Shown here piece by piece: positions 7,864 through 45,441 of a stretch of DNA of 64,000 bases. The stretch is from an uncultured bacterium. Its GTDB lineage: Bacteria; Babelota; Babeliae; Babelales; Babelaceae. The translations under genes were made by a program, and so were the position numbers. The notes below the pieces were generated by a model that saw nothing but the letters and a program-made list of their open reading frames with translations, was not told the origin of the DNA and ran no database searches. How positions within the stretch are numbered: position 1 is the stretch's first letter; each line of letters starts with the position of its first letter. The stretch spans positions 832,001 to 896,000 of the forward strand of contig CAVRKK010000002.1 in the NCBI GenBank assembly GCA_963722385.1. The letters run 5' to 3'.

Positions 7864-7877
7864 TCCAATATATTGGA
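7864..7877. promoter_or_regulatory. Palindrome before a decayed RelE-like gene
   Basis: TCCAATATATTGGA just downstream of TTGACT. Confidence 0.4.
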
Positions 7878-7904
7878 GAGTAGCATTTAGAAAAGTTTAC
7901 AAAC

Positions 7905-8083
7905 TTTATTAAACTCCTGAGTATGATGCTTGGCTTGAACAACAGACATTTAAGTCGCAAGGGCAGGTTGCTGGCGCCTTTCTAAAATAGAATTGAGGGA
8001 TATTTTGGCAATCACAAGCTGCTTGAAGATAATGTTTGGGAGCTAAACTAGGAAAATGGCACAAGAGTTATTATGCCTATATT
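7905..8083 (+). pseudogene. Degenerate RelE/HigB-like (addiction module killer) toxin fragment
   Basis: Across frames: TPEYDAWLEQQT..SQGQV..LSKIEL.GYFGNHKLLEDNVWEL..ENGTRV.YAYI, with multiple indels and stops. Confidence 0.55.
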
Positions 8084-8108
8084 ATTTCTTTAGATATTTT
8101 AATTTTAC

Positions 8109-8478
8109 TTGGGGAAAATAAAAGTATATAGACCAGGAACAAGGGATGAACAATTTGATATCTTTAACGTTGTTTTTTCTGGAGTTTCGTCGTTTTACTT
8201 CATAGAAGATATCGGAAAACGGAGATCTGATATATACGACACGGACCCAGGAGGCACAACAGAGTTGACTACTATAAGTTACTATAAAGATGGTATGAAA
8301 AATTAACGTTGTTGCCCTTAAGGGAGGTGAAGATGCAAGATGGGCAAACCAATGGTATTCATCGGCAAATTTCGGCCTAGAACTTGATCCATCAGCATTA
8401 TTCATTGAAGCCAGAAGTATAACCATAAATGATAAAACCTATGAGGTAGGCTATCCCCAAGATGAAGGAGGTTTATAA
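8109..8478 (+). pseudogene. YxiG-like putative immunity protein, frameshifted and 5'-truncated
   Basis: Joined frames: VVFSGVSSFYFIED...ELTTISYYKDGMK/INVVALKGGEDARWANQWYSSANFGLELDPSALFIEARSITINDKTYEVGYP; break in an A5 run near 8300. Family from recalled similarity. Confidence 0.55.
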
Positions 8479-8656: not shown

Positions 8657-9460
8657 ATGGACATGAGAAAAATTCTCGGAATCATAGGTCTATCTGTAGT
8701 ACTTACTCTGGGTAGCTGGCAAGCGACTGGGATGGAAGCTCCTGGTCATGAATCAAGCAGCGATGAGGAAACAAGTGCAAAAGAATACTCGCCCGAGGAA
8801 GCAGAACAGGGCAGAAAGCTTATCCAAGCGGTTAAAGATGAAGATATGGATCTCATTTATGCCTTAATTGACGCAACACCAGCTATCATTAACTACCAAG
8901 ACCCAGAAACGGGCAACACACCACTTTTAGAAGCAGTGGAAGACTCTAACCGTCCAATAATCAAGCTTCTCCTTCAAAAAGGTGCTGACCCTTTGATTAA
9001 AAACGCTCAAGGATTTCCGCCAATTTTCATCATTCTTCAGAAGTGGAGTGAACGTGAAGAGCTTTTAAGGCTGTTGATTTCTTACAATATAAAAGCTCGT
9101 GATGCACGTGGCCCTAATGGGCAAACAGCGTTGCAATATGCTGTTGAACATGATTTACCCGAAACAGATGTCCTCTTGGGTTTATGGGCTAATATTAATG
9201 CACAAGATGACAGGGGCTGGACGGCTTTGCATTATGCTGTTGATTCAAGCAATAGCACAATGGTAGATTTTTTGCTTGAAAAAAGAGCAAATCCTAATAT
9301 TAGAAGCTTCGATAGCGATGGTAATCGTACAGCTGATATGGTTATTAACTATGCTAGAGCAGGGAGAAGGGCGCCTGATATAGTTGATGCTGTGCAAAGG
9401 GCTCAATTAAGCTATGGAAAAGGATGGTTTAGCGGTCTTAGAAGCCTCATCGGTTTGTAA
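8657..9460 (+). CDS. Secreted ankyrin repeat protein, paralog A
   Basis: Signal peptide ending ATG-ME (amino acids); GNTPLLEAV, GQTALQYAV, GWTALHYAV repeats. Confidence 0.92.
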   Translation: MDMRKILGIIGLSVVLTLGSWQATGMEAPGHESSSDEETSAKEYSPEEAEQGRKLIQAVKDEDMDLIYALIDATPAIINYQDPETGNTPLLEAVEDSNRPIIKLLLQKGADPLIKNAQGFPPIFIILQKWSEREELLRLLISYNIKARDARGPNGQTALQYAVEHDLPETDVLLGLWANINAQDDRGWTALHYAVDSSNSTMVDFLLEKRANPNIRSFDSDGNRTADMVINYARAGRRAPDIVDAVQRAQLSYGKGWFSGLRSLIGL

Positions 9461-9485
9461 TTTACTACAAGTCTTAGTTTTTTTG

Positions 9486-9513
9486 AAGCCAGCACAAGGT
9501 GCTGGCTTTTTTA
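9486..9513 (+). terminator. Intrinsic terminator
   Basis: AAGCCAGCAC-AAG-GTGCTGGCTT followed by a T-run; also present in copy B near 36404-36432. Confidence 0.75.
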
Positions 9514-9584
9514 TTTATATTGCAATTCATGATACATATTAATTATAATTACTTTTAAATAGCAAATTAAAACAGGAGTAAGTA

Positions 9585-12500
9585 ATGAAGCAGCTAAACG
9601 TAATCTGCATTTTAGCTTTCTTATGTTGCAGTTTACTGGTTCGGCTAGCACATGCCCAAGAAATTGAAACTCCAGAAGAGCTATCGGCCAGGAAAGCTCA
9701 TTTAGAAAAGGAACAAGGGCAACTTGAGCAAAAATTACTTTTAGCTCAACGAGAAAACAAACCGGAAGAAGTTTTAAAAATTGAAAACCAGAAAAAGCAA
9801 ATTGCTCAGCAGCTTAAGAAGATAGATGAAGAGGAATCACGAGCAGTTCCCGTTGTCTCCCCAACAACACCGTCTAATCAAGTGCCAATTGTAGTCACAA
9901 AAGCTGGTAGTGAACAAGATGTTCTCCAAGCACCAGATATAATAAGTTGGCAAAAAGCTTGGGAAGCATTTGCTGAACAACCTGGCAGACTTTGGGGCAA
10001 AGGCGGCGCTTTGTTTGCCGCTACTTCCCCTGGAGAAAGAGCACAGAATATTGTTGAAATTATAAAGAAATTACCTGATAACTTTACTGCTAATCAAAGT
10101 ATTGATGCGCTCTCTCTTATAGCTCAGCAAGCGCTTGACATGAAAAATAAGAATTATTTTACGCCAGATGAAGCTAATCGTGATTACGGCCGAATAATCA
10201 AAGCTCTAGCTAAAAAGCTAGGCCAAGTCATCGAAAATGCCCATTATCAAGATCAAAGTCCTGAACAGGTAAATCAGTTACTTATGACAATCCTCAAAAA
10301 AATTAAGGCAGACCCTCAATTTGAAAGACTGATACAAACTACCATTGTTACTAAGATGGTTGAATATTTAAAGACCATGCCATTACAAGAGGGTTCTGCA
10401 AATATCTTAAGTAATTTTGGCGACATAATAGACGTTTTTCTTAAACTCTCAAAAGGTATTGTTCTGGCTGAAATTCATATTCACGCGATTCAAACTGCTT
10501 TGGCAGAAGTCATTGAAAAAATAGCTGAGCCTATTGCTAACCTATCATTTGAACAGGGACTAAGTACGCTCAAGGATATAGCGGAAAGTAAGAATGTTAA
10601 AGCATTATCCAAGAAGATGCCACAGCTTTCCCATATATTTGTTATTACTGCGAATCGACTTTTATCGAACGAATTAAGCAATCATAGTTTAACACGCGAT
10701 ATTTCACCGCTTACGCAACCTGGCCAAACGGAAGAGCAGAAAGAAGCATTATACCTGAATGCTTATGTTAAAGAAGTAGACTTGCTCAATAAATATTTAA
10801 TTTTTACCAAGAAGAATGGCGCCAGCAAAACAGACCCAGAATTTCAAGCAGCGGCACGAAGGCTTTCTCGCGTTAACGATTTTATGAATGAACAAAAGGA
10901 TTTGCCAGAAACACAAGCCAATAAGCAACTTTTTAACAAGCTCAATAAGGCTATTTTTAAGGTGCTCGACACGCTGGTCGATGAAGGCGGCATCATGGGT
11001 GTTCTCGAGCATGATACAGAATTTGAGTCAAAAGAAGAGGAACAAAGCAAGCTTTTCAATCGGCTGTCTGCGCTTCCTGAAGATATGCTCGCTGGGATGA
11101 ATCAAGAAGCTACCAGCGTACTTGAACAAATGAGCAAAACTACTGATCCAAAAAGGCTTAAAGAGCTTTATGATAACTTAGAGGCTATCTACGTAAACCT
11201 TACCCAGCCACTCATCGAGGAGAAAGATAAAAGCTATGACTTAAAAGATTTACTTATTGAATCGGCTGATCTTGCAAACTTAAGTAAGCTTACCGAACAA
11301 ATCGAAAAAGCCCTTGGGCCTCGAAAAGAAGTACTCCAAAAGAATGTTAAGCGCCTCGTAACGATAAGAGACCGCTTTAATGAAATATTGCCAAAGCTTA
11401 AAGAATCTTCTCTTGCAAATATCACCGCCCATGGCAAAGAACTTGGTCAGCAAAAACAGGATCTTGAGAAAATAACAGAATATGCAGTACCCGAAGGGAT
11501 GGTGCCAGAGTTTCAACGTACCTATGGGCAGGTAGAGGCATGGACGGACATCATCGACGCAGCTGAAGCATATAAAGCGTTAACTAGTGCGCCTGCTCAA
11601 TTAACCGAGCAAGAAAAAGCAACTGTTGGCCAAGTGTATGTAACCGTAACCAAAGCTTTTGCTGGCATTCCTGTTTCCCTCGATTATGATCAAGAAAAAA
11701 TATTTACCGATCGTCTTGAGGCTATGAAGAAGCAACAAGAAGCATTGGATAAGCTTACGAGTCTCGTGCGTGAGCCAAAAGCAACTATCGGTGGCAAAGA
11801 GTACGATTTGCTGCAGGTTGCGGGCTTTATTAAAAAGCTTGCTTATCGTTTTGAGAAACTTTCGTCACAGCAGCTTGATGATTTAGAAAAAAGTGGCTTT
11901 TTGATTCATGACGTACGAGAGGGTCAAACATATTATAGGCCAAGTGATCGTGGCCTTTATTTAGTCAGCATTGCTGATACGCTTAATGACGTTGAACGCC
12001 GCGCAAAGCAGCTTGATGAATATCAAAAGCAGCATGCTTCTGGTATAGAGCCAAGCCTTCAGAGACTCAGCCCTACGGGGCGACCTATCGAAATTGCAGA
12101 GGCTTATAGACTGCAGTTGCTTATTCTTGATGATCAGGTTGATGTTCTTCAGTATCTCTATCGTAGAAACATTCTCGAAAACAAAGTTGAAGAAGCAGTT
12201 TCTGGTGTTGTTAATACTACTGCTATCAATAACCCGCCGCCACTGGCCAAAATTGATAAAACAGAATTGCTCAATGATATAAGTGATTTGCTCTCCGTAG
12301 CACGTGCCGAGTTAAGAAAGGAATCAGTCAATCCCTATTTTGAGTCACTTGTTGAAAGTGAAGCTTATATTGAGTCGTTACCTCAAAAAGAGCAGGCGGA
12401 AGCACGCAAGGCAGCTGGCTTAACAACCTGGATTATGCGCATTATTGGCCTCTCTGATCCTGAGGCAGTTTTTACCGCTGATGAGGCAACTATTACTGAA

Positions 12501-13643
12501 GAGGTCAAAGATATCTATACCAAGTTGAAAAGTGCCGTTAATGCCAGCTTAGCTGATCTTGCTGCTCGCTGGAAGCAAGCGATGATTGCTGGTAAAGAGA
12601 CTGCCAGTAAAGTAGCATGGTACAGCGCAATTCCCGCCGCTGTTGTTGCTTTCTTTGCCACTAAAATAACGGTGCAGGCGGGAGCACCGATAATCGGCGG
12701 AACCCTGGGAAGCGCCATTGGACCCGTAGGAACCGTTGCTGGGGCAACTATTGGAAGCATGGTGGGCGGTGTGACAGGCGATATTGCTGCTCTCTTTGCT
12801 GGCGCCGGTGCAGGAGCGAGCTTGTACCTTCTTTATGCGACCCTGAAGCCAACCGAACAAGATTATGAAAAATTAAACGAGCTTCTTTTTAAAGCAGGCT
12901 ATGTGCCTGAATATATTCAAAAAGATCCTGGACTTTGGAATAAAGCCGTTGAGAAAATGAAAAGCTTGTTTTCTTCTGAGGTCACCAATATGGTCAAGGA
13001 TGCAGAAAAGGTAAAAGAGGGAGTTGATCAAAAAATAGCATGGGCTACTAAAGCACAAGAAGAGCTTTATGCGCAGCTTGGCATTGAACCCAATGCGCGA
13101 GCGACTGCTGTAGAAGCTGGCTTTAAGCAAAAAGAAGAAGCGCTCAAAGGTCGGCTTTTCTTAAATCGGTGGCTTACCAAAAAGAACTTAACGCGAGACT
13201 ATCGCCGTATGCTTAAATGCCATATCGAAGCACGCCGCGCCCAAATAGAATACAACAGTGTTCTTGTTGACATAGCTACCAAAATTATGGCTGATGTAGC
13301 ACGGGAAAATACCGGCATCCTCGATGGCATCTGGAATTTTATCTGGGGCACTAAACAAGGGACTGAAGAGAAACCAACCGCTGACAAATTGATCCAAACG
13401 GCGCGCGACACTATCGATGTATATCGTCGCCAAGTGGCTGATCTTATTGCCCTTGAATCAATGATTGAAAAGCAGGCGGGGGACATTAGCAAAGCTGATC
13501 CTTTTGGTAAAGGAAACACGTTAATTGACGCATTTAGAGATCAGTTTAATAGTAGAGTTAACGATTTAGAAGTCTCATACGTCGATAATGTTAATCTTCT
13601 GCTTGAGTCTCAAGGCAAGAAAACGCTCAGCCTCCCTACCTAA
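9585..13643 (+). CDS. Large secreted alpha-helical protein with a glycine-zipper hydrophobic segment, paralog A (1352 aa)
   Basis: AGGAG RBS; signal peptide (AHA-Q); coiled-coil character; Gly/Ala-rich hydrophobic block at about aa 1010-1085. Confidence 0.85.
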   Translation: MKQLNVICILAFLCCSLLVRLAHAQEIETPEELSARKAHLEKEQGQLEQKLLLAQRENKPEEVLKIENQKKQIAQQLKKIDEEESRAVPVVSPTTPSNQVPIVVTKAGSEQDVLQAPDIISWQKAWEAFAEQPGRLWGKGGALFAATSPGERAQNIVEIIKKLPDNFTANQSIDALSLIAQQALDMKNKNYFTPDEANRDYGRIIKALAKKLGQVIENAHYQDQSPEQVNQLLMTILKKIKADPQFERLIQTTIVTKMVEYLKTMPLQEGSANILSNFGDIIDVFLKLSKGIVLAEIHIHAIQTALAEVIEKIAEPIANLSFEQGLSTLKDIAESKNVKALSKKMPQLSHIFVITANRLLSNELSNHSLTRDISPLTQPGQTEEQKEALYLNAYVKEVDLLNKYLIFTKKNGASKTDPEFQAAARRLSRVNDFMNEQKDLPETQANKQLFNKLNKAIFKVLDTLVDEGGIMGVLEHDTEFESKEEEQSKLFNRLSALPEDMLAGMNQEATSVLEQMSKTTDPKRLKELYDNLEAIYVNLTQPLIEEKDKSYDLKDLLIESADLANLSKLTEQIEKALGPRKEVLQKNVKRLVTIRDRFNEILPKLKESSLANITAHGKELGQQKQDLEKITEYAVPEGMVPEFQRTYGQVEAWTDIIDAAEAYKALTSAPAQLTEQEKATVGQVYVTVTKAFAGIPVSLDYDQEKIFTDRLEAMKKQQEALDKLTSLVREPKATIGGKEYDLLQVAGFIKKLAYRFEKLSSQQLDDLEKSGFLIHDVREGQTYYRPSDRGLYLVSIADTLNDVERRAKQLDEYQKQHASGIEPSLQRLSPTGRPIEIAEAYRLQLLILDDQVDVLQYLYRRNILENKVEEAVSGVVNTTAINNPPPLAKIDKTELLNDISDLLSVARAELRKESVNPYFESLVESEAYIESLPQKEQAEARKAAGLTTWIMRIIGLSDPEAVFTADEATITEEVKDIYTKLKSAVNASLADLAARWKQAMIAGKETASKVAWYSAIPAAVVAFFATKITVQAGAPIIGGTLGSAIGPVGTVAGATIGSMVGGVTGDIAALFAGAGAGASLYLLYATLKPTEQDYEKLNELLFKAGYVPEYIQKDPGLWNKAVEKMKSLFSSEVTNMVKDAEKVKEGVDQKIAWATKAQEELYAQLGIEPNARATAVEAGFKQKEEALKGRLFLNRWLTKKNLTRDYRRMLKCHIEARRAQIEYNSVLVDIATKIMADVARENTGILDGIWNFIWGTKQGTEEKPTADKLIQTARDTIDVYRRQVADLIALESMIEKQAGDISKADPFGKGNTLIDAFRDQFNSRVNDLEVSYVDNVNLLLESQGKKTLSLPT

Positions 13644-30713: not shown

Positions 30714-32058
30714 ATGAAGCAGCTTAAAGTACTCGCGCTATGTCTCGTTTGTTATACAAGTTATTCGTACGATGGTCAGGTAGATCCATCTTTTGGAAAT
30801 AACGGGACAACCATTACTCGTTTTAGTCAAAAAAATGATGTTCTTTGGAAAATAAGACTCCAGAAGGATGATAAAATTATAGCTGCGGCTTCGTTGGGAG
30901 GTCAATTTAATACGGCGTTTGCCGTGGCTCGCTACACTAAAAATGGGACTCTAGACAAATCATTCAATGCATTGGGAAAAACGCCAGGATTGGCTATTCC
31001 TGAGTTTGGGAGGTTTGATACCGCCCAAGCACATTCAGCTATCGTTCAACCCGATGGGAAAATTGTCGTTGCAGGATATGCTGTTACCAATTATCCAGCC
31101 ACGGGTCTTGCATTAGCTAGGTACTATCAAAATGGAACATTGGACAAATCATTCAATGCTGAAAAAACACCCGGAACGGCGCTTACCAGTTGCTGTAAAA
31201 ATGGTAGTGACCAAGGGTATTCGGTAGCTCTTCAAAAAGATGGCAAAATTGTTGTTGGGGGGAAACAATCTTAGTGCTATCGAAGTTGCTCGGTACAATT
31301 CGAATGGTACCCTGGATACATCATTTAATGCTGAAGGAAAATTTGGCGCACAACCTGGCACCGTGATCACGAGTTTTGGGAATTTCTCTCCTTTTGGCTT
31401 GGGGCTTGTTATTCAGCCAGATAGCAAAATTGTTATTGCAGGTTACTTAAATGGCCTTTTCGCAACGGAAATTCAGTATGTTATAGTCCGTTATAATCCT
31501 GATGGCACGCTTGATACCTCTTTTAATGCTCACAAAACTCCTGGTTTTTTAATTGATAGCTTTGGTAATAGCTACCCAACCAATCAAGTGAACGATATGA
31601 TACTGCTTAAAAATGGCAAAATTTTTGTTGTAGGTTGGGTCTCAAGCGGTATCAATAGCCTTGCAATTGCCTCGTACAACAGTGATGGAAGCGTTGATAC
31701 TACATTTAATCCAAAAGGAATCGGTGCAAGGGTTGGTGCTGTCATAGGAAACTTTGGTATGGCCGGTTCGGATACCAAAGCAGAGGCTGTGCTCGAGCAG
31801 GGAGATGGCAAGATTGTAGTTGGTGGACAAGGAAGCAACTTGTTTGATCAAAATAATCAGTTTTTCGTCACACGTTATTACGCCAATGGGACGCTCGACC
31901 AATCTTTTGGTCAACAAGGACTAGTCTTAACTAATTTAGGAGGACTAGACGATACAATTTTAAGTCTTGCTTTTGATTCGCAAGAAAACATTGTTGCTGG
32001 AGGCATAACAGGAAGCCGCGGCGATTATGGGTTTGGATTAACTCGATACCTAGATTAG
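30714..32058 (+). pseudogene. Delta-60 repeat beta-propeller protein, split by a frameshift in a G6 run
   Basis: Repeats QxDGKIVxAG...LARYxxNGTLDxSF in both ORFs; G5 instead of G6 at 31257-31262 would join them. Confidence 0.85.
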
Positions 32059-32274: not shown

Positions 32275-35200
32275 TCACGTAGGCAGGCTGAGCGTTTTCT
32301 TACCTTGAGATTCAAGAAGAAGGTTAACGTTATCGACGTATGATATTTCTAAATCTTTAACTCTACTATTGAACTGATCTCTAAATGCGTCAATTAAAGT
32401 ATTTCCTTTACCGAAGGGATCAGCTTTGCCAATGTCCCCCGCCTCCTTCTCAATCATTGATTCAAGAGCTATGAGATCAGCCACTTGACGACGATACACA
32501 TCGATAGTGTCGCGCGCCGTTTGGATCAATTTGTCAGCGGTTGGTTTCTCTTGTGTTCCCTCTTTAGCACCCCAAATTAAATTCCAGATGCCATCGAGGA
32601 TGCCGGTATTTTCCCGTGCTACATCAGCCATAATTTTGGTAGCTATGTCAACAAGAACACTGTTGTATTCTATTTGGGCGCGGCGTGCTTCGATATGGCA
32701 TTTAAGCATACGGCGATAGTCTCGCGTTAAGTTCTTTTTGGTAAGCCACCGATTTAAGAAAAGCCGACCTTTGAGCGCTTCTTCTTTTTGCTTAAAGCCA
32801 GCTTCTACAGCAGTCGCTCGCGCATTGGGTTCAATGCCAAGCTGCGCATAAAGCTCTTCTTGTGCTTTAGTAGCCCACGCTATTTTTTGATCAACGCCCT
32901 CTTTTACTTTTTCTGCGTTCCTGACCATATTGGTGACCTCAGAAGAAAACAAGCTTTTCATTTTCTCAACGGCTTTATTCCAAAGTCCAGGATCTTTTTG
33001 AATATATTCAGGCACATAGCCTGCTTTAAAAAGAAGCTCGTTTAATTTTTCATAATCTTGTTCGGTTGGCTTCAGGGTCGCATAAAGAAGGTACAAGCTC
33101 GCTCCTGCACCGGCGCCAGCAAAGAGAGCAGCAATATCGCCTGTCACACCGCCCACCATGCTTCCAATAGTTGCCCCAGCAACGGTTCCTACGGGTCCAA
33201 TGGCGCTTCCCAGGGTTCCGCCGATTATCGGTGCTCCCGCCTGCACCGTTATTTTAGTGGCAAAGAAAGCAACAACAGCGGCGGGAATTGCGCTGTACCA
33301 TGCTACTTTACTGGCAGTCTCTTTACCAGCAATCATCGCTTGCTTCCAGCGAGCAGCAAGATCAGCTAAGCTGGCATTAACGGCACTTTTCAACTTGGTA
33401 TAGATATCTTTGACCTCTTCAGTAATAGTTGCCTCATCAGCGGTAAAAACTGCCTCAGGATCAGAGAGGCCAATAATTCGCATAATCCAGGTTGTTAAGC
33501 CAGCTGCCTTGCGTGTTTCCGCCTGCTCTTTTTGAGGTAACGACTCAATATAAGCTTCACTTTCAACAAGTGACTCAAAATAGGGATTGACTGATTCCTT
33601 TCTTAACTCGGCACGTGCTACGGAGAGCAAATCACTTATATCATTGAGCAATTCTGTTTTATCAATTTTGGCCAGTGGCGGCGGGTTATTGATAGCAGTA
33701 GTATTAACAACACCAGAAACTGCTTCTTCAACTTTGTTTTCGAGAATGTTTCTACGATAGAGATACTGAAGAACATCAACCTGATCATCAAGAATAAGCA
33801 ACTGCAGTCTATAAGCCTCTGCAATTTCGATAGGTCGCCCCGTAGGGCTGAGTCTCTGAAGGCTTGGCTCTATACCAGAAGCATGCTGCTTTTGATATTC
33901 ATCAAGCTGCTTTGCGCGGCGCTCAATGTCGCTTAGAGTATCAACAATGCTTACTAAATATAGCCCACGATCACTTGGCCTATAATATGTTTGACCTTCT
34001 CGTACATCACGAATCAAAAAGCCACTTTTTTCTAAATCATCAAGCTGCTGTGCTGAGAGTTTCTCAAAATGATAAGCAAGCCTTTTAATAAAGTCCGCCA
34101 CCTGCAGCAAATCGTACTCTTTGCCATCAATCGTTGCTTTTGGCTCACGCACGAGACTCGTAAGCTTATCCAATGCTTCTTGTTGCTTCTTCATAGCCTC
34201 AAGACGATCGGTAAATATTTTTTCTTGATCATAATCGAGGGAAACAGGAATGCCAGCAAAAGCTTTGGTTACGGTTACATACACTTGGCCAATAGTTGCT
34301 TTTTCTTGCTCGCTTAATTGAGCAGACGCCTTGGTTAATGCGTTATAGGCGTCAGCTGCATCGATAATATCCGTCCATGCCTCTACCTGCCCATAGGTAC
34401 GTTGAAACTCTGGTACCATCCCTTCGGGTACTGCATGTTCTGTTATTGCTTCAAGCTCCTGCTTCTGCTGTCCAAGTTCTTTGCCATGGGCTGTGATATT
34501 GGCGAGATCAGATTTTGTAAGCTCTGGCAATATTTCGTTGAACCGGTCTCTTATCGCTACGAGACGCTTAACATTCGTTTGAAGTACTTCTTTTCGAGGC
34601 CCAAGGGCTTTTTCGATTTGTTCGGTGAGACTATTTAAGTTTGTAAGATCAGCTGATTCGCTCAGTAAATCTTTTAAGCTATAACTTTTATCTTTCTCCT
34701 CGATGAGTGGCTGGGTAAGGTTTACGTAGATAGCCTCTAAGTTATCATAAAGCTCTTTAAGCCTTTTTGGATCAGTCGTTTTGCTCATTTGCTCAAGTGT
34801 GCTCGTAGCTTCTTGATTCATCCCAGCGAGCATATCTTCAGGAAGCGCAGACAGCCGATTGAAAAGCTTGCTTTGTTCCTCTTCTTTTGACTCAAATTCT
34901 ATATCATGCTCGAGAACACCCATGATGCCGCCTTCATCGACCAGCGTGTCGAGCACCTTAAAAATAGCCTTATTGAGCTTGTTAAAAAGTTGCTTATTGG
35001 CTTGTGTTTCTGGCAAATCCTTTTGTTCATTCATAAAATCGTTAACGCGAGAAAGCCTTCGTGCCGCTGCTTGAAATTCTGGGTCTGTTTTGCTGGCGCC
35101 ATTCTTCTTGGTAAAAATTAAATATTTATTGAGCAAGTCCACTTCTTTAACATAAGCATTCAGGTATAATGCTTCTTTCTGCTCTTCTGTTTGGCCAGGT

Positions 35201-36333
35201 TGCGTAAGCGGTGAAATATCGCGTGTTAAACTATGATTGCTTAATTCGTTCGACAAAAGTCGATTCGCGGTAATAACGAATATATGAGAAAGCTTGGGCA
35301 TTTGCTTGGATAAAGTTTCGGCTTTCTCACTTTCCGCTATATCCTTGAGCGTACTTAGTCCCTGTTCAAATGATAAAGCGTCAACCGGTTTAGTTATTTT
35401 TTCAATAATTTCTGCTAAAGCATTTTGAATGGCGTGATGGTGAATTTCAGATAACATAAGGCCCTTAGAGATGCCTAAATAATCGCTTATTACGTCAGTA
35501 AAATTTTGCGAAATATTTGAAGAGCCTTCTTTAAGTCCAGCAGTCTGTAAGTAATCAATGATTTTCCGAGTAATCATGATTTCTATTGAATTTTTAAATT
35601 GAGGGCCTACCTTAATTTTTTTGAGAATTGTTATAATCAATTCATTCACTTGTTCAGGCTCCTGATTTTTAAATTGGCTGTTTTCGATAACTTGATCTAA
35701 CTTTTTAGCGAGGGCTTTGATGATTTGGCCATAATCGTGATCAGCTTCATCAGGCGTAAAATAATTTTTATTTTTCATGTCAAGAGCTTGCTGAGCTATA
35801 AGCGAGAGTGCATCTATGCTTTGATTAGCACCAAAGCTTGCAGGCAATTTCTCCACAATTTCAATTATATGCTGTGCTCGTTCTTCGGGAGGGGTAGCGA
35901 CAAACAAAGCGCCTCCTTTGCCCCAAATCCTGCCAGGTTGTTCCGCAAATGTTTCCCAAGCTTTTTGCCAACTTGTTATATCTGATGCTTGGAGAACTTC
36001 TTGTTCACTGCCAGCTTTTGCGACTACAATTGGCACCTGATTAGACGGTGTTGATGGGGGAAAAGCAGGAACTGCTTTTGATTCTTCTTCAGAGACCTCT
36101 TTAAGCTGCTGAGCAATTTGCTTTTGCTGGCCTTCGATTTTTGAAACTTCTTCTGGTTTGTTTTCTCGTTGAGCTAAAAGTAATCTTTGCTCAAGTTGTC
36201 CTTGTTCCTTTTCTAAATGAGCTTTCCTGGCCGATAGCTCTTCTGGAGTCTCAGCATCTTGGGCTTGTGTTAGCGGAACAAGTAAACTAAAACATAAGAA
36301 AGCTGAAATGAAAATTAGGCTGAGCTGCTTCAT
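32275..36333 (-). CDS. Large secreted alpha-helical glycine-zipper protein, paralog B (1352 aa)
   Basis: Same length as, and colinear with, 9585-13643. Confidence 0.85.
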   Translation of the reverse strand: MKQLSLIFISAFLCFSLLVPLTQAQDAETPEELSARKAHLEKEQGQLEQRLLLAQRENKPEEVSKIEGQQKQIAQQLKEVSEEESKAVPAFPPSTPSNQVPIVVAKAGSEQEVLQASDITSWQKAWETFAEQPGRIWGKGGALFVATPPEERAQHIIEIVEKLPASFGANQSIDALSLIAQQALDMKNKNYFTPDEADHDYGQIIKALAKKLDQVIENSQFKNQEPEQVNELIITILKKIKVGPQFKNSIEIMITRKIIDYLQTAGLKEGSSNISQNFTDVISDYLGISKGLMLSEIHHHAIQNALAEIIEKITKPVDALSFEQGLSTLKDIAESEKAETLSKQMPKLSHIFVITANRLLSNELSNHSLTRDISPLTQPGQTEEQKEALYLNAYVKEVDLLNKYLIFTKKNGASKTDPEFQAAARRLSRVNDFMNEQKDLPETQANKQLFNKLNKAIFKVLDTLVDEGGIMGVLEHDIEFESKEEEQSKLFNRLSALPEDMLAGMNQEATSTLEQMSKTTDPKRLKELYDNLEAIYVNLTQPLIEEKDKSYSLKDLLSESADLTNLNSLTEQIEKALGPRKEVLQTNVKRLVAIRDRFNEILPELTKSDLANITAHGKELGQQKQELEAITEHAVPEGMVPEFQRTYGQVEAWTDIIDAADAYNALTKASAQLSEQEKATIGQVYVTVTKAFAGIPVSLDYDQEKIFTDRLEAMKKQQEALDKLTSLVREPKATIDGKEYDLLQVADFIKRLAYHFEKLSAQQLDDLEKSGFLIRDVREGQTYYRPSDRGLYLVSIVDTLSDIERRAKQLDEYQKQHASGIEPSLQRLSPTGRPIEIAEAYRLQLLILDDQVDVLQYLYRRNILENKVEEAVSGVVNTTAINNPPPLAKIDKTELLNDISDLLSVARAELRKESVNPYFESLVESEAYIESLPQKEQAETRKAAGLTTWIMRIIGLSDPEAVFTADEATITEEVKDIYTKLKSAVNASLADLAARWKQAMIAGKETASKVAWYSAIPAAVVAFFATKITVQAGAPIIGGTLGSAIGPVGTVAGATIGSMVGGVTGDIAALFAGAGAGASLYLLYATLKPTEQDYEKLNELLFKAGYVPEYIQKDPGLWNKAVEKMKSLFSSEVTNMVRNAEKVKEGVDQKIAWATKAQEELYAQLGIEPNARATAVEAGFKQKEEALKGRLFLNRWLTKKNLTRDYRRMLKCHIEARRAQIEYNSVLVDIATKIMADVARENTGILDGIWNLIWGAKEGTQEKPTADKLIQTARDTIDVYRRQVADLIALESMIEKEAGDIGKADPFGKGNTLIDAFRDQFNSRVKDLEISYVDNVNLLLESQGKKTLSLPT

Positions 36334-36458
36334 TACGCACTCCTGATTTTAATTTGCTATTTACAAATAATCATAACTAATATTTAGCATGAATTGCAAT
36401 ATAAAAAAGGCCAGCACATAAAGTGCTGGCTTAAAGATCAACTAAGACTTGAAGTAAA

Positions 36459-37262
36459 TTACAAACCAACAAGGCTTCTAAGGCCGCTCAACCATCCTTT
36501 ACCGTAGCTTTGTTGGGCTGTCAAGATGGCCCTAGCCATGCTTGGCCCTCTTCTTCCTGCCGTATCGGGATTAATAACCATATCAGCTGTACGATTTCCG
36601 TCGCTATCAAAGCTCCGGATATTGGGGTTCGCACCCTTTTCAATCAAAAAATTTACGGCTAAGCTCTCTCCTTGGGCTACCGCATAATGCAGTGCTGTCC
36701 AGCCTCTGTCATCTTGCGCATCGATATCAGCCCACAAACTTAAAAGAACCCTTTTTTCGGGTAAATCATGTTCAACAGCGTATTGTAATGCTGTTTGACC
36801 ATTAGGACCACGGCCTTCAAGAGCTTTTATATTATAAGAAATCAGCAGCCTTAAAAGCTCTTCACGATCAGTAAATTTCTGAAGTATAATGAAAATTGGC
36901 GGAAATCCTTGAGCGTTTTTAATCAAAGGATCTGCGCCTTTTTGAAGGAGATCCTTGATTATTTGGCGATTAGAGCCTCCTACTGCTTCTAAGAGTGGTG
37001 TATTGCCCGTTTCTGGGTCTCGGTAGTTAATGATATCAGATGTCGCCTTAGTTAAGGCATAAATGAGATCCGTATCTTCGTCACTAACCGCTTGGATAAG
37101 CTTTCTGCCCTGTTCCGCTTCCTCAGGGGAGTATTCTTTTGCACTCGTTTCCTCATCGCTGCTTGATTCATGACCAGGGGCTTCCATCCCGGTCGCTTGC
37201 CAGCTACCCAGAGCGAGCACTACAGATAGACCTATGATTCCGAGAATTTTTCTCATGTCCAT
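36459..37262 (-). CDS. Secreted ankyrin repeat protein, paralog B
   Basis: Same length (267 aa) as, and colinear with, 8657-9460. Confidence 0.92.
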   Translation of the reverse strand: MDMRKILGIIGLSVVLALGSWQATGMEAPGHESSSDEETSAKEYSPEEAEQGRKLIQAVSDEDTDLIYALTKATSDIINYRDPETGNTPLLEAVGGSNRQIIKDLLQKGADPLIKNAQGFPPIFIILQKFTDREELLRLLISYNIKALEGRGPNGQTALQYAVEHDLPEKRVLLSLWADIDAQDDRGWTALHYAVAQGESLAVNFLIEKGANPNIRSFDSDGNRTADMVINPDTAGRRGPSMARAILTAQQSYGKGWLSGLRSLVGL

Positions 37263-37470: not shown

Positions 37471-38244
37471 TTAAAGCTTTAAAACCTCTCTGTAAAGGAG
37501 CACGTTTGAACAAAGGCTCTTCAATTCTTCCAATTTTCGTGCATAGTTTAAAATAAGGGGAATTTTTACAAGAGGGTAAGGGCTAGCAAAAGAAACACGC
37601 CAAGCAGATTTAGTCAAATATTCCTTTTGTAGAACTAGCTGATCAGCCTTATCTATTTCTTCATCAGCAAGAATACGATCTGCTAGCTTCACTATATATT
37701 CACCTACACTTATAATGTCAGCAATGATATTTTTATATTCCGAAGGAAATTCTTCTTTCTTGATTTTTATTTGTAAAAAATTTTTATAAGCGGCTTCTAG
37801 TTTAATAATTAATTCTGGTGCGATTCCTGCTACGATTTCTCCTTCATGAAAAAACTCTATGGCATATCTTTTGCTAGGTGAAAATATCCAAACATTATCT
37901 CCCTGATAATCAAGGGTATTTTGTAGAAAGGTAATAGCATCTTTCGCTTCTGTTTTTACAGCTGGTAAAGAACCGTTATCCCAAATTATATATACGCAAT
38001 TGTCTGCTTCCGCAATGTTGATACCGTGCTGATCTAGAAATTGATATATTTGTTCTAGAAGGGGTTTTTCAAGATCAATCAATGTTTTCTCATTCACTTT
38101 TTCCCAATTTACCCTTCCCCATAAAACAAAAGGGAACATTTTGGTTAAAACTTCATCAACTTCATTTGTGCTTGATTGCGAAAGTATCGTTCTTTTTCTC
38201 GGATCAATTTCATTCATATAATCCTCAAACAAAGTGGACATCAT
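37471..38244 (-). CDS. CdiI-like immunity protein with constant C-terminal extension
   Basis: TLFED..FPFVLWGRVNW..YIIWDNGSLPAVKT..VWIF..IEFFHEG; directly follows the orphan toxin tip; AAGGAG RBS. Confidence 0.75.
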   Translation of the reverse strand: MMSTLFEDYMNEIDPRKRTILSQSSTNEVDEVLTKMFPFVLWGRVNWEKVNEKTLIDLEKPLLEQIYQFLDQHGINIAEADNCVYIIWDNGSLPAVKTEAKDAITFLQNTLDYQGDNVWIFSPSKRYAIEFFHEGEIVAGIAPELIIKLEAAYKNFLQIKIKKEEFPSEYKNIIADIISVGEYIVKLADRILADEEIDKADQLVLQKEYLTKSAWRVSFASPYPLVKIPLILNYARKLEELKSLCSNVLLYREVLKL

Positions 38245-38271
38245 CAGCTCCTTATATAACTAATTTTTTAA

Positions 38272-38460
38272 TTATTTATTAAGATGCGTTAATAAGTTGA
38301 GAACAGTGTTTAAGTCTCCTTCGAATGGAATAGCAATGTTTACACCGCCATTTCCTTTTTTACCAAGCCGAAAATCAACCACATTAATATGAGGCCCTTT
38401 CGTAGGATCCCAATCAAGCCTAAAATGAGCTTTGCAACCTACCATTTCCATTCCAACAAT
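38272..38460 (-). pseudogene. Orphan toxin C-terminal tip (not in the ORF track)
   Basis: IVGMEMVGCKAHFRLDWDPTKGPHINVVDFRLGKKGNGGVNIAIPFEGDLNTVLNLLTHLNK*; homologous to the tip of 39999-41720. Confidence 0.85.
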
Positions 38461-38807
38461 CTTTCGTTGTTGCTTTTTAAAGCTGCAATATACTGATCAA
38501 TTTTCTTATCATCGAGCACGTGATTTGGCTCGTCGAGCTCCTCAAGTTCATTCATTACGCTCGCAATAGAATCACATTCATTATCTGCATAGTCGAATAG
38601 TTCTGAAAACCATACTACGTTAACCCAATTAAGCAAAAATTCCTTGTTGATTTTTCCTAATTTATATTTGCTCAGCAAATTAATAACATGCTTACTTGCG
38701 ATTATTACGGATGCAGCTTTTTCTCTATCGCGAGGAAGTAGTTGAAAAAGCTCTTCTTTTGAAAGTTCTAAGTCTCTAAATTTTTCTAATGCGCTACTTA
38801 TCTGCAT
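38439..38807 (-). CDS. Small acidic helical protein, probable unrelated orphan immunity protein
   Basis: 122 aa, low GC, inside the immunity array; function inferred from position only. Confidence 0.55.
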   Translation of the reverse strand: MQISSALEKFRDLELSKEELFQLLPRDREKAASVIIASKHVINLLSKYKLGKINKEFLLNWVNVVWFSELFDYADNECDSIASVMNELEELDEPNHVLDDKKIDQYIAALKSNNERLLEWKW

Positions 38808-38841
38808 TAATACCTTGTTTATTGGTAAAAGAAGGGTAATG

Positions 38842-39585
38842 CTACAATTTTAAAACCTCTCTGTAAAGGAGCACGTTTGAACAAACGTTCTTCAATTCTT
38901 CCATTTTTCGCGCATAGTCTAAGACAGGAGGAATTTTTACAAGGGGACAAGGGTTAGCAAGAGGAACGCGCCAAGCAGATTTAGTCAAGTACTCCTTTCG
39001 TAGAACAAGCTGATCAGCATTATCTATTTCTTCATGAGCAAGAATACGTGCTGCTAGCACTGCTATATGTTCCCCCGCGCTTATAATGTCGGTAATAATA
39101 TTTCTATACTCAAGAGGGAATTCTTCTTTTTTTATTTTGGTTTGCAAAAAAGTTTTGTAAGCCGCTTCCAGTTTAATATTTAAATCTGGTGCAACTCCAA
39201 TAGTAATACCTCCTATATTGTAATATTCAATCGCATACCTAGATATAGGGCAAAAAATCCATGTACGTGAACCAAGTATAGTAATAGTATCGATCTCCCA
39301 GAGAAACTTCGTTAACTTTGCTTTACAAGGAAATGTTTCAGCATTATCCCATAGGGCAATAGTTTCCATATTTGCATTAGGTACCAACATATTAACTGTG
39401 GTAATTACTTCTTCGATCGTATCAACCTCTACCTTTTTGTCTATTTTTTCCCAGTCGATTGCAGAGAACAGAAAAGGGAAAAGTACCTCAAAAATAGTGA
39501 AAATTTTTTCGTCTTCTTCTCCTCGAATAACTTGAACATCGTTCCCTATTTCTTCAATAACTTCGTCAAATAAAGTGTTTTCCAT
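38842..39585 (-). CDS. CdiI-like immunity protein with constant C-terminal extension
   Basis: TLFDEVIEEIG..FPF..IDW..ALWDNAETFP..TWIF..IEY; last ~115 aa strongly similar to 37471-38244. Confidence 0.75.
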   Translation of the reverse strand: MENTLFDEVIEEIGNDVQVIRGEEDEKIFTIFEVLFPFLFSAIDWEKIDKKVEVDTIEEVITTVNMLVPNANMETIALWDNAETFPCKAKLTKFLWEIDTITILGSRTWIFCPISRYAIEYYNIGGITIGVAPDLNIKLEAAYKTFLQTKIKKEEFPLEYRNIITDIISAGEHIAVLAARILAHEEIDNADQLVLRKEYLTKSAWRVPLANPCPLVKIPPVLDYARKMEELKNVCSNVLLYREVLKL

Positions 39586-39607
39586 ATAATGCCCTCAGGT
39601 AGCTTCT

Positions 39608-39990
39608 TAAATGTGAAAATTGTTCATTCTTGATTTTTAATATAAAGCAATTTGCGAGTTAGTTCTGCCCCTCATGATAAATACAATTTCCTATCTTTCA
39701 CTCGAAGAAATATCATTATATCAAAGGCTGCTGCAGTAAACATAACTAATATTGCCAAAGCTATGTTTAAATTGTTAGTTAACAGCAGGAATATATTATT
39801 CCATAAGATAAATATCCTTGGCCTTTCTTATCCAAGCTATCAGTTATCCATAGATATCTTGGTTCATTTCTGTTACACTACTATTTCAATTGACCAACCT
39901 CATCAACAACCCAGCGCATTAAAAAGCTCACAAGCTTGCCTTTTGTCTAATATTGTAATATTTTGTTTGCCCAAGGCGCCTCGAGTGCAT
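39608..39990 (-). pseudogene. Heavily degenerate CdiI-like gene immediately after the toxin
   Basis: RBS plus ATG at 39990; fragments in different frames NITILDK, IFILWNN, IPAV, TAAAFDIMIF, YHEG match the order of motifs in the neighbouring immunity genes. Confidence 0.6.
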
Positions 39991-39998
39991 TTATTTCC

Positions 39999-42900
39999 TT
40001 AACTATTTATTGAAACATCTGTAAATATTTTTTCGAAGTGTCTGTAAATATCATCAACATCCTCTTTTGTTCCTTCAAAGAGTATTACTAAGTTACTTCC
40101 TTTAGCGCTTTTGCCCATTGTAAAGTCTTCCACATGCACATGAGGGCCCTTAGTGGGATCCCAATCCAATCTCCATCTGCCTTTTTTCGGAAATTCTCGT
40201 CCGACAATTTTACCCTTACCTATACCTATCCTGCCGAAATGAGGTTGAGAATTAAGTTTCAAAAGACCCAAATGATCCAAGATTTCAAAAGCCTTATCTC
40301 TAGCTTGCTCAAAGGTTTTAACTTTGTCTAAGATTATCTCTCTGCCAGCACCAGCAGCTGCCCTTGCATTTTTGAGAAGCTTTGCTGGAGTAGTTACGAA
40401 ACGAGTGGTAGATGCCTTGCTTATTAATTCCCCAGCTGCTGTACGGGCTCTGAGTTCCGGCAAAGCATAATTTGCTAATGAGGGACCGATGGCAGAAGCC
40501 TTATCTTTCAAATTTTTTAGTTTCTTGCCGGTCTTATTTGCCAAGAATTTTACTGGCCAAAGTATTGTTCTAACGAATTTTAGATTTTTTACATAGGGGA
40601 ATATAATGGCAGCGGCGTGCAATGCCCGTTCGCCGTATCCAATGTCTTGTCCACCTACATAATCCCGGCCAAGGCCAAACTCAGCGGTAGATTTAACGTT
40701 CCCTACAATCGGTACGAAGTCGAGCATGGTTGATACGAGCGGTCGAACGAATGAAGCTAACTCATCATTGAGCATTTCTTGGTTCGCCTGCGCTTGAAAA
40801 GTATCTTCGAGCTTTTGATAAATTTGTTCAGCAACGTCTAAGATATCCGCCGATTGCTGCTCATTAAACAAGTCGAGAAGGTTATCAAAACTCGGTGAAT
40901 CCTCTGGAGCAACATCGGGTGCTGTTTTGGTGGCATCACCCTGTTGCTTGATCAACTCGTAGCTTCCATATAGCTTTTCTACGAAATCTGCTGTTTCTTC
41001 TGACGAAGCTGATTCAACAGGCCACCCCTGACTATATTCACCTGCTTGGTCATCAAGATTAATCTCTTCGAAGTCCTCATTCTCTTCCTGCGCAGCGTAT
41101 CCCTCGGTGCCAGGATATTTTTGATCAAAATCTTCCCTGAGCAGGTCCTTAAGTTCTTCAGTTTTTTCTGCAGGCTGCCCTGATGCCATGTTTTCGGCGA
41201 ACTCTGCTTCATGTGACGTAAACGGCTCTCCCTGCTTCTTTTTCTGCTCAAGGAACTCGTTAAGAAGCTTCTCCTCAGCATCCCGCGCTTGCTGCTTAAT
41301 CTCTTCTCGTTGTTCCGCTGCAGCCTCTTTCATTGTTTGATTGATGGCGTCGAGGTTATTGCCGTCTTCAGCAAATAACTCTTTAATGCGCTGCATCTTC
41401 TGGGCAAACTTTGACGGGTTGATGATTGGTATCACCAAGCGCATAACTGTTTCATCTTCAACATATGTCTCTTGCATCATGCGCATATTGCGATTTAACT
41501 CGGCAATCGCGGCACCCAAAATATCAAGGTCTATGTTTTCGGAAATGGTTGCCCGTGTAATACCGTCTTTCGACTTAGAAGTATAGCGCCCATCAATCAT
41601 GCCATAGAGGCCAAGGTCATCGCCATTGGGTATAAAGCTGGCACCAACACTAAAGCCACGCGTTTCTTTGCCTTCATGAATATCTTCAGAAGCGAGGTGG
41701 CGAGCTTTCGACGGTGGCATTGGTTGAGTTACTGCTTATATAAGCACCCGTGAGATCTATCGTATCGCCAACATGCACCTCAAGATGCTCGGTGCCCTCA
41801 ATACCTGAAGCTTGGCTAACTTTATGTTCATAGGTCTCTTTTTGAGCATAATATGCGCCACCAGCCGCTGAACCAACATAGGCACTAGCACCGCTCGAAA
41901 AGCTATAGTGCGTATCCTCAACTGATTCCACCATCAGGTTATGCTCAACATTAATGGTTGTAGAGATGCCCTGTACCCGGGCTCCTTTGAGCTCTGCATT
42001 CTTGACATCAATGACAATGGTATCGGCGTTTATCTGCGCATTATCATGCGTCACCGTATATGAAGTGCTTGTCTGCTTTGATGCGTCAACGGTACCACTA
42101 AGCGTTACACCAACACTTTGTGATTGTTGATTAACGGTGACCGTATGTTGTGCTGCAGTTGCTTGGAAGTTCTGTCCCTTAATGGTTGCTTTCTCGGCTT
42201 CTAGGGTTGTTCCGTCAAGCTGAACATCATCGCCACTCTCGATATGGACTTCTTGACCAGAAATATGGCTCGGCACCGTAATGGTTTGCTCGCGGCGTAT
42301 GGTATCATGTGCAATATTGAAATATAAATCAGGCGCGAAGGAGCCTTGTGCATCGGCAATACCCAACCGCACGGCCAAGAACTTGCCGGTGCTTCCTTCT
42401 TTCTGCTTGTACTGATTAAACAAGCGCAAAGCCTCAATACCCATCATCGTTGTGCTTGCAAGGGTGTCAGCAGTGCTTGCCGAACTGGCAAGTCGGTGAA
42501 TAGAGGCAATCAGTGGGTCCTCATCATTGAGCGCCCACAAAGCTCTGCGATATTCTTCGTCGGCAAGCAAACCGAGAGCATCTGAGCCAAAAAAGGTCAC
42601 ACCGAATGACCAGCTATCAGTCATTGATGATGAATGCTGTTTGGCTCCTTTGATAACATTATTGCGCTTGGCAATCAAGTGAATAGGCTGACCTGCATAA
42701 ACAGCCACTGCCTCAAGCACATTGTCCTCGCCCGACTCAAAGGTCACCTTGCCACCAACATTAATCTCAGTTTTGATTATATGGTCCTGCAGATGCTTTT
42801 TGCTGGTAGCATAGAGCCCAAACAAATCAAGCCCCAGCTGCTTCTGCTCGCCTTTAAGCGTTGTGGTCACTACGGCAAGATCATTACTCTTTTTTGCCTT

Positions 42901-45441
42901 AAACAAGGCATCACGGATGGCAGTAAAAGAAGCACCATAGCTTTTGATTGAACCATTGGTAGACTCTACCGTAAGATTCTTTCCAGCACCTATCTCTGAG
43001 CGCTCCATAGTCATCGCCTCTTTGACCACTTGCTTAACCGAAAAGCCCTGCAGCGATGTACCGCTATATGATGTATGCTTGTTGGTAAGTGTTTTAAAGA
43101 CGGCATCACCGTATGCTTTCAACTGGACATTCTGAGCGCCAATAATTTTCGATCCCTCATTAAACAGCTTGCCCGTCTCGCTTATAAGCTCAATATTGCC
43201 CTCAGAAGTAATGTTTCCTGGATAAAAATCTACTATTTCCGAAGAGCTTTGATGGCCAAAGAGCCTGCCAAAAAAGCCAGGGTCCCACGTTACGGTATGG
43301 CTTCCCAAAAGAACCGTGTTGGTGATGTCTCCCTGCTTGGCATAGAGCGATACTTTCTGCTTGCCCACAATAGAGCCACCAATGTTCTTAATACCCGCTT
43401 TACCAACGGCATCTTGGGGAACTTCAAGCTCGATATCAAAGCCAATAATATCACCGCCTTCTAACGGCGTGCGCACGGAGTATTTTTTTACCTTATTGGC
43501 TTTGTTAATAATCGTATCTGCTTGTATCTTTACACGATTAATGGCACGAATCATGCCCTTGTTGACGACTCGATGCATCTTATCAATAGTAACATCATGA
43601 GCAAGAAAAGAGCCCATACGCTTATTGGCATCACGGTCTGCTGCACACACATGAAGGACAGGGACTAAACAATCAACACCATCGAATTTTTGAACCTGGT
43701 AATAGATAAATGAAAATGGCAACTCATGTATAAGCTCTTGCGTGAGTATTCCAAGATTTTGGCCTTCTTGTACGTCCGTCATTTTGCTTTTGAGCCATGA
43801 AGGATAACCATTAATTTTATGGCTGTAGCGCTTGAGAAGTCTGGCGAGCTCTTGCTTTTCTTCCTCAGCCAATTCGACCTTGGTTTCTTGCGGCTGATCT
43901 TTCAACGACTTTCGCGGTTTATTGTGTCCCCGTGGTAGCGGCTCCCTTTTCTTCATGTTTCCTATTTTCCTACCATTGACAAGGGCTACGAGATAGCCAG
44001 CACGTTGGAGCTCCCGGAGTTGGGTAGCAAAGTCACCTTCGCCCCCAAGTGCGGGAAGGCCGAGCTCAAATAAAAGCCGAGAGAGTATCTCTACCTGAGA
44101 ACTAAAAGAGAGAAGCATAGCTGGTTTGTTCAAAGTTGTGCCATGAAAAAATGCAAGCTCATTGCCAGGCTGCCATTCTTCTGTGCTCTCTTTTTGTGAA
44201 GGATGGGTAAAGATAAAGCGCGGGTCATTACAGAGAATGGTAGTGGTGGGATCGATAAACTGAGCAAATGAGAGAGAAATTGGGCCATAAGATCTCAGAT
44301 CATCTACGTCGGACTTATGATTATGCATAACCCCTTGCTTGTTTGATGATGAGACATGAGCCTCTTGCCCAATAACAATCTGGCCTGTGCTTTCAAATGC
44401 CGGATAGTGCTTGATATCATGTATCTTCACCGGCTGGCCCTGAAGCATGAGCTTGAAATCTTTGCCCGCTTGCAGGATTGCTACATCGTCGCAGCTTTCA
44501 AAGTAATCAGCCACTGCTCGGGTAACCATGTTTTTGAAGATCCAGCCAGTATCTTCTTTATAGGTCTCACAACGCTTATGATCATTACACTGCGTTAGAA
44601 GCTCAAACTTTTGATCAATATCAGCAATAATATTTTCTTTTGCATGCAGAATGCCGCCATAAATACCAACATGATTGGCAGCAAGAGAGATATTCCCTTG
44701 CGACCTCACCAATGAGCGCCTTGGCGAGACCATATCGTACTCAACACATGTCCAGGGATACCCGTTATCATTGATAGCACGGTATCGGTTACCCTCAATT
44801 CTTTGCGCTCCGCCATAGAACTGCTTATAGCTGTTTGCTTTGATACGTAGATCTCCCGTTGACGCAAAGCTACCCCTAATTGCCACCGTTCCTTCGTCAA
44901 ATAACAAATCAGCTTTGCCGCCAACATGCCAGTCAGCCTTGGCACCACTCCAGAAAACACCTCGAGGCATAGTAAGCACCAAGTCTTTCTTAAGCAAGAT
45001 CGGCGTCTGGGAGGCAATTCTGCCACTGCCAGACACCTCAAGCGAAAATGAGTCAGCCATCTCAAGCTCGTGAATCGCGATATTGCCTTCGGGATCCATG
45101 GTGAGACAAAAGCAGTTATCGCCTTCTTGAACACGTATTTGTAAATTGCGAGTATCTATGAACGAAAAAGGCTGCGCTAATTCTGATGGCTTGAATGTAT
45201 CACGTACCGCATGTATAACAGCAGCACGTGCAATCTGCTTACCATTCTTGATGATCTTGCAGTGTGTTGCTTTTTCTGGGCTCTCTTGGCCGCGCAGCTT
45301 AGGTATGTGGCGGGATGCTGGTTCGTCACGTGTAATAATTACGTGATAGCCCTCTCGGGGCTCCGTGCTTGCTTGACAATATATTGCTAGTAGAGAAAAA
45401 ATAGAGACAAGAGCATAACGTGTGAAAGCCTTAATAAACAT
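39999..45441 (-). pseudogene. CdiA/FhaB-like polymorphic toxin, about 1810 aa, split by one extra base near 41707
   Basis: Sec signal; beta-rich haemagglutinin-like repeats; junction TNATV-(E/K)-ARHLASEDIH; PT-TG-like LDFVPIVGNVKS..GRDYVGGQ..ERAL; tip TFEQARDKA..WRLDWDPTKGPH. Confidence 0.85.

Follow-up and report, generated by a model that had tools for sequence, protein, structure and literature searches.

A shortened CdiA-like polymorphic toxin in five copies in a Babelaceae genome with no detectable TpsB transporter

How does a toxin built on the plan of CdiA leave the cell when its transporter is not detected in the genome? The question is raised by a locus at positions 37471-45441 of a 64,000-nt stretch of DNA from an uncultured Babelaceae bacterium (contig CAVRKK010000002.1, phylum Babelota). 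The window denotes this whole stretch, and positions are those of the window unless preceded by C2, a contig of the genome to which it belongs. That genome (G000; 1.60 Mb in two contigs, 93% complete) holds five copies of the toxin, which are mosaics of one another and carry two types of C-terminal tip. The window tip and its immunity proteins are of the family of PDB entry 5T86, orphan cassettes are present and no TpsB (CdiB) is detectable. On balance, sequence comparison leads us to favour the reading that this gene, one of five copies, encodes a CdiA-derived polymorphic toxin in shortened form, which would kill rival bacteria, be neutralised by its immunity protein and be exported independently of TpsB, probably by Sec and type II secretion. 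An antibacterial role overall we regard as likely.

Architecture of the toxin and its carrier family

Read along the minus strand, the locus consists of two overlapping open reading frames (ORFs; 45441-41686, 1251 aa, and 41720-39999, 573 aa), followed by a 413-bp spacer, the immunity gene I1, a 122-aa ORF, a truncated orphan tip and a second immunity gene, I2. The first ORF opens with a predicted Sec signal peptide of ~24 residues (45370-45441; hydrophobic window 2.67), and a comparable hydrophobic window, by score only, is found in 8 of the 9 family proteins scored. A short, family-specific beta-helical region follows (44407-45369), and at residue 566-567 the conserved YP/FHA-2 landmark of TpsA proteins (43648-43746) opens the FHA-2 half, whose stalk contains five Fil_haemagg_2 stretches (PF13332, Pfam E 7e-23; the best at 41896-42141). 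This ORF ends just past a frameshift. The second comprises the stalk end, an acidic linker, a PT-TG pre-toxin domain (PF14449; 40578-40739, Pfam E 1.7e-7) and the tip (39999-40343), in which the motifs FEQAR (40313-40299) and RLDWDPTKGPH (40172-40140) are located. The GC fraction is 0.46 in the stalk but only 0.38 in the tip, and in the immunity region it is 0.34-0.37. The Sec signal (as a hydrophobic N-terminus), haemagglutinin-like repeats, PT-TG motif and low-GC tip named in the original prediction are thus all borne out, as is its reading of the locus as a CdiA-derived polymorphic toxin with an immunity array: a conserved carrier with variable C-terminal toxin domains, adjacent immunity genes (ImmP) and orphan cassettes are found together.

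The carrier is rare. Residues 1-650 retrieve just 9 proteins among 1.84 billion representatives, and a stalk profile matches 4 of 261 genomes of the phylum, all of one family; three of these had contributed to the profile, and the fourth (G021) lacks the tip. Full-length family proteins span 1712-1822 aa, the family as a whole being of about 1,700-1,860 aa, and their tips are barnase-type (PF00545, in P0005), Ntox35 (in G008), 5T86-type (in P0007) or without an assigned family. Intact frames of 1,700-1,830 aa with a full tip each, at 21-33% identity, are found in G001 (a single-contig genome), G008, P0005, P0007 and P0011. Pattern scans gave no relatives in genome contigs (a single query) or metagenome contigs, an alignment scan returned G001 and G008 only, and use of the tip to find longer proteins returned the sister copy only. 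Two genes downstream of the tip-less member in G021 lies a repeat-rich ORF of >1750 aa (L018:13665-18935).

The four sister copies in G000 are 88-95% identical to the N-terminal ORF of the window copy, and each is a single intact ORF of 1745-1832 aa. Identity among the five is mosaic, with long tracts of 100%, and drops to ~50% past PT-TG between the two tip types, a pattern from which gene conversion and tip swapping may be inferred. The second tip type (C2:314192, C2:337429 and C2:359866, and G001) has no Pfam or PDB match; in G000 it is followed by YxiG-like (PF24711) genes. A separate 1294-aa signal-peptide protein without a Pfam match, preceded by two near-identical 275-aa genes, was noted at C2:322855-328734 and C2:1249201-1251155, and fragments lie at other toxin loci; it is possibly another toxin/immunity system.

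The break between the two window ORFs (41705-41709) is the sole frame-breaking indel relative to the four sister copies upstream of 41000, and is either an assembly error or a recent pseudogene mutation. Of the soil-run contigs that span this point, 5/5 and 6/6 lack the frameshift. None is the exact window allele, from which each departs at 7-33 further sites, and they may represent sister copies. Two database proteins of the same toxin family on other contigs (P0003 and P0004) also show an apparent frame switch when inspected by eye, which fits assembly errors. The frameshift, the degenerate spacer, a broken relic at 4595-5473 and the tip-less relative in G021 would also suit a decaying relic of an acquired contact-dependent growth inhibition (CDI) locus, its cdiB lost and its export gone, and pseudogenised haemagglutinin toxins are described as common in Rickettsiales (PMC11077975). 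Against such decay stand the intact frames with full tips listed above for other family members and the four intact copies in G000, and we give this explanation hardly any credence.

Identity of the tip and its immunity proteins

The main tip matches only one PDB entry, 5T86_A (E 2.4e-15 as a single sequence, 3.4e-29 as a profile), with homology over 100 residues; this entry is the CdiA-CT/CdiI pair of Escherichia coli A0 34/86. Likewise, I1 (38842-39585, minus strand) and I2 (37471-38244, minus strand) match the CdiI_ImmP family (PF24172; Pfam E 6e-21 and 5e-18), the immunity profile reaches 5T86_I at E 2.8e-5, and the predicted immunity model (pLDDT 84.5) aligns with 5T86_I at a TM-score of 0.84, the root-mean-square deviation (rmsd) being 2.1. 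The original prediction had likened the pair to the tRNase and immunity protein of Pseudomonas aeruginosa PABL017 (PDB 6D7Y). This identity is not supported: both proteins match 5T86 alone, and 6D7Y gave no match at E ≤10 (tip, as sequence or profile) or ≤5 (immunity), nor a fold match of the immunity model. 5T86 has been classed as a BECR nuclease fold and described as without a published mechanism (bioRxiv 10.64898/2026.05.10.723254). Three residues, D519, K524 and H527, are invariant in 22/22 aligned tips. RNase activity of the tip is predicted as likely, and tRNA specificity would be a guess.

The C2 sister at 1248538-1243109, itself intact, pairs a tip 73% identical to the main tip with the same spacer and an I1 copy of 89% identity, and I1 is therefore likely the cognate immunity protein of the main tip. 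Both I1 and I2 join the ImmP domain (5T86_I fold) to a helical C-terminal extension of ~115 aa, which, of the 24 ImmP-bearing genomes, only G000 and G008 have at full length, and which has no match in Pfam, PDB or Atlas. Between I1 and I2, 49% identical as proteins, the extension (38842-39240 and 37471-37850) is better conserved (84% DNA identity over 300 nt) than the immunity domains. I2 accompanies the truncated orphan tip (38272-38463, minus strand), which corresponds to the last ~63 residues at the C-terminus of a 5T86-type toxin and shares 49% identity with the main tip. The 122-aa ORF (38439-38807, minus strand) gave no significant match in Pfam or PDB and is by position only a likely orphan immunity gene.

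The array proposed earlier thus stands in its two ImmP genes, the small ORF and the orphan tip, whereas its supposed decayed immunity gene does not reach significance. This AT-rich, degenerate spacer (39586-39998, minus strand), which is common to the sister locus at C2:1243108, gave no match to the immunity profile with stops read as X. A frameshift-aware immunity score of 24.6 compares with 19.3 ± 2.1 for shuffled sequences, 1/60 of which reach it; the sister spacer scores 25.3, reached by 3/60 shuffles. The spacer is possibly a decayed immunity gene.

The same warhead also occurs on other carriers. The 5T86-type tip was found in 20/261 genomes of the phylum and ImmP in 24/261, and an immunity gene comes after every intact tip seen. 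At ten loci that were extended, 9 of the 11 tip-bearing ORFs are long non-haemagglutinin carriers with hydrophobic N-termini and two are orphan cassettes (neighbours assigned by eye). These loci (L115-L124, in G187, G189, G191, G227, G096, G243, G208, G229, G019 and G171) hold the tip/ImmP pair on carriers of 674-1475 aa. Six of these carriers are related to one another and have no Pfam match above the cut-off, the one in G019 is of a PT-HINT type, and that in G227 stands apart; they look like further undescribed polymorphic toxin families. Long orphan cassette arrays are found in G229 and G171.

The missing transporter and the route of export

That the transporter is missing is a solid result. 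In G000, which is 93% complete, the TpsB family (PF03865) gave only a weak BamA match, although a very diverged TpsB might escape such a search, and ShlB had no match over the cut-off in G000, G001, G008 or G021. Across the 261 genomes PF03865 recovered two frames at E ≤1e-5, both BamA-sized (821 and 834 aa) and covering a short part of the profile, under conditions where two real TpsB proteins were found (2/2, E ~1e-81). A two-sequence TpsB profile run on 1356 ORFs of G000 gave a best E of 0.43, but it is shallow and recovers BamA only at E 2. The absence of CdiB first noted for the window consequently extends to the genome. G000 has two Omp85 proteins, with five and three POTRA matches, and G001 a single, BamA-sized one. 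The second Omp85 was tried as a dedicated exporter and rejected: it is strong in 27/41 genomes of the family and not found in toxin-bearing G001 or in G021, and thus does not co-occur with the toxin.

The N-terminal region gives a divided picture. By sequence, the original prediction of no motif of the two-partner secretion (TPS) domain holds: NPNG and NPNL are absent from the first 400 residues, and PF05860 has no match in 4 full-length family proteins or in a set of 8, where two ordinary TpsA proteins give E 1e-46 and 6e-50. Genome searches with PF05860 (0/1 and 0/261) carry no weight alone, as their controls also gave no match. The hhalign comparison, made with shallow two-sequence templates, places the region with FHA-1 repeats (78%) rather than TPS (0.2%), and in Atlas its nearest neighbours are haemagglutinin-repeat clusters (0.91-0.92), a lead only. 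However, the predicted fold ranks TPS structures first. The model has a pLDDT of 62, mostly >85 over residues 81-180; Foldseek returned nothing at E ≤0.001 and weak HpmA and HxuA rows. The region may thus be described as a TpsA-type beta-helix and possibly a diverged TPS domain. It is also short: the landmark at residue 566-567 aligns, in colinear matches, to residues 1180 and 1572 of two annotated TpsA proteins encoded near ShlB-family genes, so that ~600-1,000 fewer residues precede it than in ordinary TpsA.

Of secretion machinery, G000 encodes type II parts (two GspD secretins, GspC and a PilM/GspL-like gene), and GspE-type ATPases are present in 4/4 genomes bearing the family. One operon (C2:774048-783335) groups two ~1000-aa GspD secretins with GspC and PilM/GspL-like genes; two gspD copies are reported for all TM6 genomes (PMC4776705). 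VipB and VirB10 were found in 0/4 family-bearing genomes with positive controls, and TolC was not found in G000. As the same tip sits on unrelated Sec-type carriers and type II parts are present, we tentatively infer that the toxin leaves by a general route common to these carriers, the simplest candidate being type II secretion.

Several points weigh against this account. Secretion, toxicity and expression are all predictions from sequence, and from the window copy as assembled the full protein would not be made. Type II systems are described as general in the phylum (PMC4776705), so their presence gives no tie to the toxin. Moreover, the two contigs of G000 reach 93% completeness, and several unassigned outer-membrane-like proteins of 350-790 aa without a Pfam match are encoded there; for 5T86_A, a second classification is that of a VOC fold bearing a metal site (PMC9424270). 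In addition, the top five VIA fold matches of the N-terminal model are all TpsA/TPS structures (Z 16.0-12.9, rmsd 2.6-4.1; next beta-helix 12.2), which makes a diverged TPS domain with an Omp85 route possible.

Under this alternative the toxin would be surface-displayed as in CDI, through BamA or an unrecognised TpsB. The best fold matches are the secretion domains of HMW1, HxuA, EtpA and FHA (for EtpA, Z 14.3 and rmsd 2.6 over 176 aligned residues, model 2-344), two Omp85 genes are available in G000, and the retained YP/FHA-2 landmark is one that accompanies CdiA secretion arrest (PMC9086364). The family nevertheless lacks any PF05860 match, the sequence profile prefers FHA-1, the second Omp85 is not found in G001 or G021, and BamA and TamA are described as inserting rather than secreting proteins (PMC7644211). 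We consider Omp85-mediated display unlikely.

Active export might also be dispensable, with the toxin staying in the periplasm or vesicles and being released passively, as a diffusible bacteriocin, on lysis of the cell or the host inclusion. No dedicated exporter was found, the filament is short, the tip is common to several unrelated carriers, and the outer membrane of the phylum is described as degenerate (PMC4776705). Conversely, no lysis gene was recognised by eye beside the loci, and the retention of five 5-kb genes, their signal peptides intact, suits regulated export no less well; passive release appears quite improbable.

In the Sec and type II reading favoured here, Sec would move the toxin to the periplasm and the type II system would take it across the outer membrane. 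The short beta-helical N-region would bind a neighbouring cell, and the retained FHA-2 half would carry PT-TG and the tip across the target outer membrane, as in CdiA. The tip, once cut off, would attack RNA of the translation machinery, and tips would be swapped by recombination at PT-TG. A bolder version, which strikes us as somewhat doubtful, would have a two-partner-secretion passenger uncoupled from its transporter and rerouted via type II, with the FHA-2 half as a self-contained device for outer-membrane delivery; this carrier and at least two other, unrelated carriers of Sec type would share a warhead/immunity pool that Dependentiae turn on each other in protists.

Lifestyle and target

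ATP/ADP translocases, an energy-parasite gene set, and many ankyrins are encoded in G000. The translocases support host dependence, in agreement with the intracellular habit first suggested, and Dependentiae (Babelota) are described as strictly intracellular in protists (PMC12172432). Placement in this phylum is suggested by the translocases, the ankyrins and the two gspD copies, as well as by small genome size and by a phylum-level search that gave the same 21 families as one at order level. The likely targets would then be other Dependentiae or co-resident bacteria inside the protist. Host-directed toxins of endosymbionts are described as typically without immunity genes (PMC3482391), and the immunity gene after each intact tip accordingly favours a bacterial target. 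The tip could instead be aimed mainly at RNA or mitochondria of the protist host, immunity only guarding the producer during synthesis. The energy-parasite genes and the ankyrin genes that accompany the loci are in keeping with this, and some BECR effectors are described as trans-kingdom (bioRxiv 10.64898/2026.05.10.723254). However, orphan immunity arrays and ImmP in 24/261 genomes point to defence against toxins of other bacteria, and the tips are polymorphic, as in kin conflict. A mainly host-directed role therefore has a very slight chance of being correct, and the earlier suggestion of host tRNA as target received no support in this analysis.

Neighbouring genes

Behind the toxin locus, as behind 4/5 toxin loci, lie a 267-aa ankyrin gene and a 1352-aa gene (32275-37262, minus strand), and the pair recurs at 8657-13643 as an inverted duplication with 83-94% DNA identity. 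The relic at 4595-5473 (plus strand) is an inverted, broken orphan tip with an I2-type immunity gene. It forms part of what appears to be the relic of a sixth toxin locus (4595-8470), in which a YxiG-like gene at ~8030-8470 is, by eye, broken as well; a transposase-like ORF within it (5528-6307) is presumably IS5-like. A DUF5122 repeat gene at 30714-32058 is split into two overlapping ORFs, possibly by another frameshift.

Comparison with known systems

The closest reference is the CdiB/CdiA/CdiI system of CDI (type Vb; PMC9086364), with which the toxin shares a signal peptide, haemagglutinin stalk, YP/FHA-2 landmark, pre-toxin domain, swappable tip, adjacent immunity and orphan cassettes. It differs in that no TpsB and no TPS sequence match were found, PT-TG replaces VENN and five dispersed copies are present. 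As for the long FHA-1 filament, the stretch before the landmark amounts to only ~565 residues (1180 and 1572 in the two TpsA proteins), and part of it resembles FHA-1 by hhalign. The locus is thus a rare variant (4/261 genomes) that resembles the delivery half of CdiA and, with no CdiB detected, ought not to be listed among CDI systems. How FHA-2 moves the toxin across the target outer membrane is described as unclear (PMC9086364), and a family in which FHA-2 and tip remain, while CdiB and the greater part of the filament are gone, is a stripped-down case in which to ask whether FHA-2 suffices.

CdiB-less haemagglutinin toxins with CdiA-CT/CdiI modules have been described in Rickettsiales (PMC9111745, PMC11077975), and as a general idea such toxins in intracellular bacteria are not new. 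These CRCT/CRCA modules likewise occur in obligate intracellular bacteria, with CdiA-type tip/antidote pairs, haemagglutinin toxins, divergent warheads, no cdiB and a proposed interbacterial role. They differ in phylum and tips; type I and IV systems are available to Rickettsiales, whose modules are described as mostly degraded or without signal peptide, whereas here the carriers are intact and Sec-type, and TolC (searched in G000), VirB10 and VipB (in the four genomes) were not found. The literature search, outside which most subscription journals lay, returned no report of such toxins in Dependentiae or of TpsA export without TpsB. With the present family, toxin conflict between bacteria would reach into a phylum whose members are strictly intracellular parasites.

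The hybrid of PT-TG and haemagglutinin repeats proposed for the locus is present but not new. A published catalogue lists PT-TG next to haemagglutinin repeats for Achromobacter, Fusobacterium and Leptotrichia (PMC13483458), and its Pandoomain groups 20/21 likewise place PF13332 before PF14449, with some PF00545 tips, in diderm bacteria; nine supplementary files of that work contain no Babelota or Dependentiae rows.

With regard to the warhead, the PABL017 pair and the present one share a description as BECR-fold CDI toxins, yet the PABL017 immunity protein is placed in another structural group than 5T86_I (PMC9424270). The E. coli A0 34/86 pair (5T86, PF24172) is the homologous system, over 100 residues of the tip and in the immunity fold (TM-score 0.84), from which the proteins described here differ by the ~115-aa helical extension on the immunity side; with them, 22 aligned tips are now available for the uncharacterised 5T86 family.

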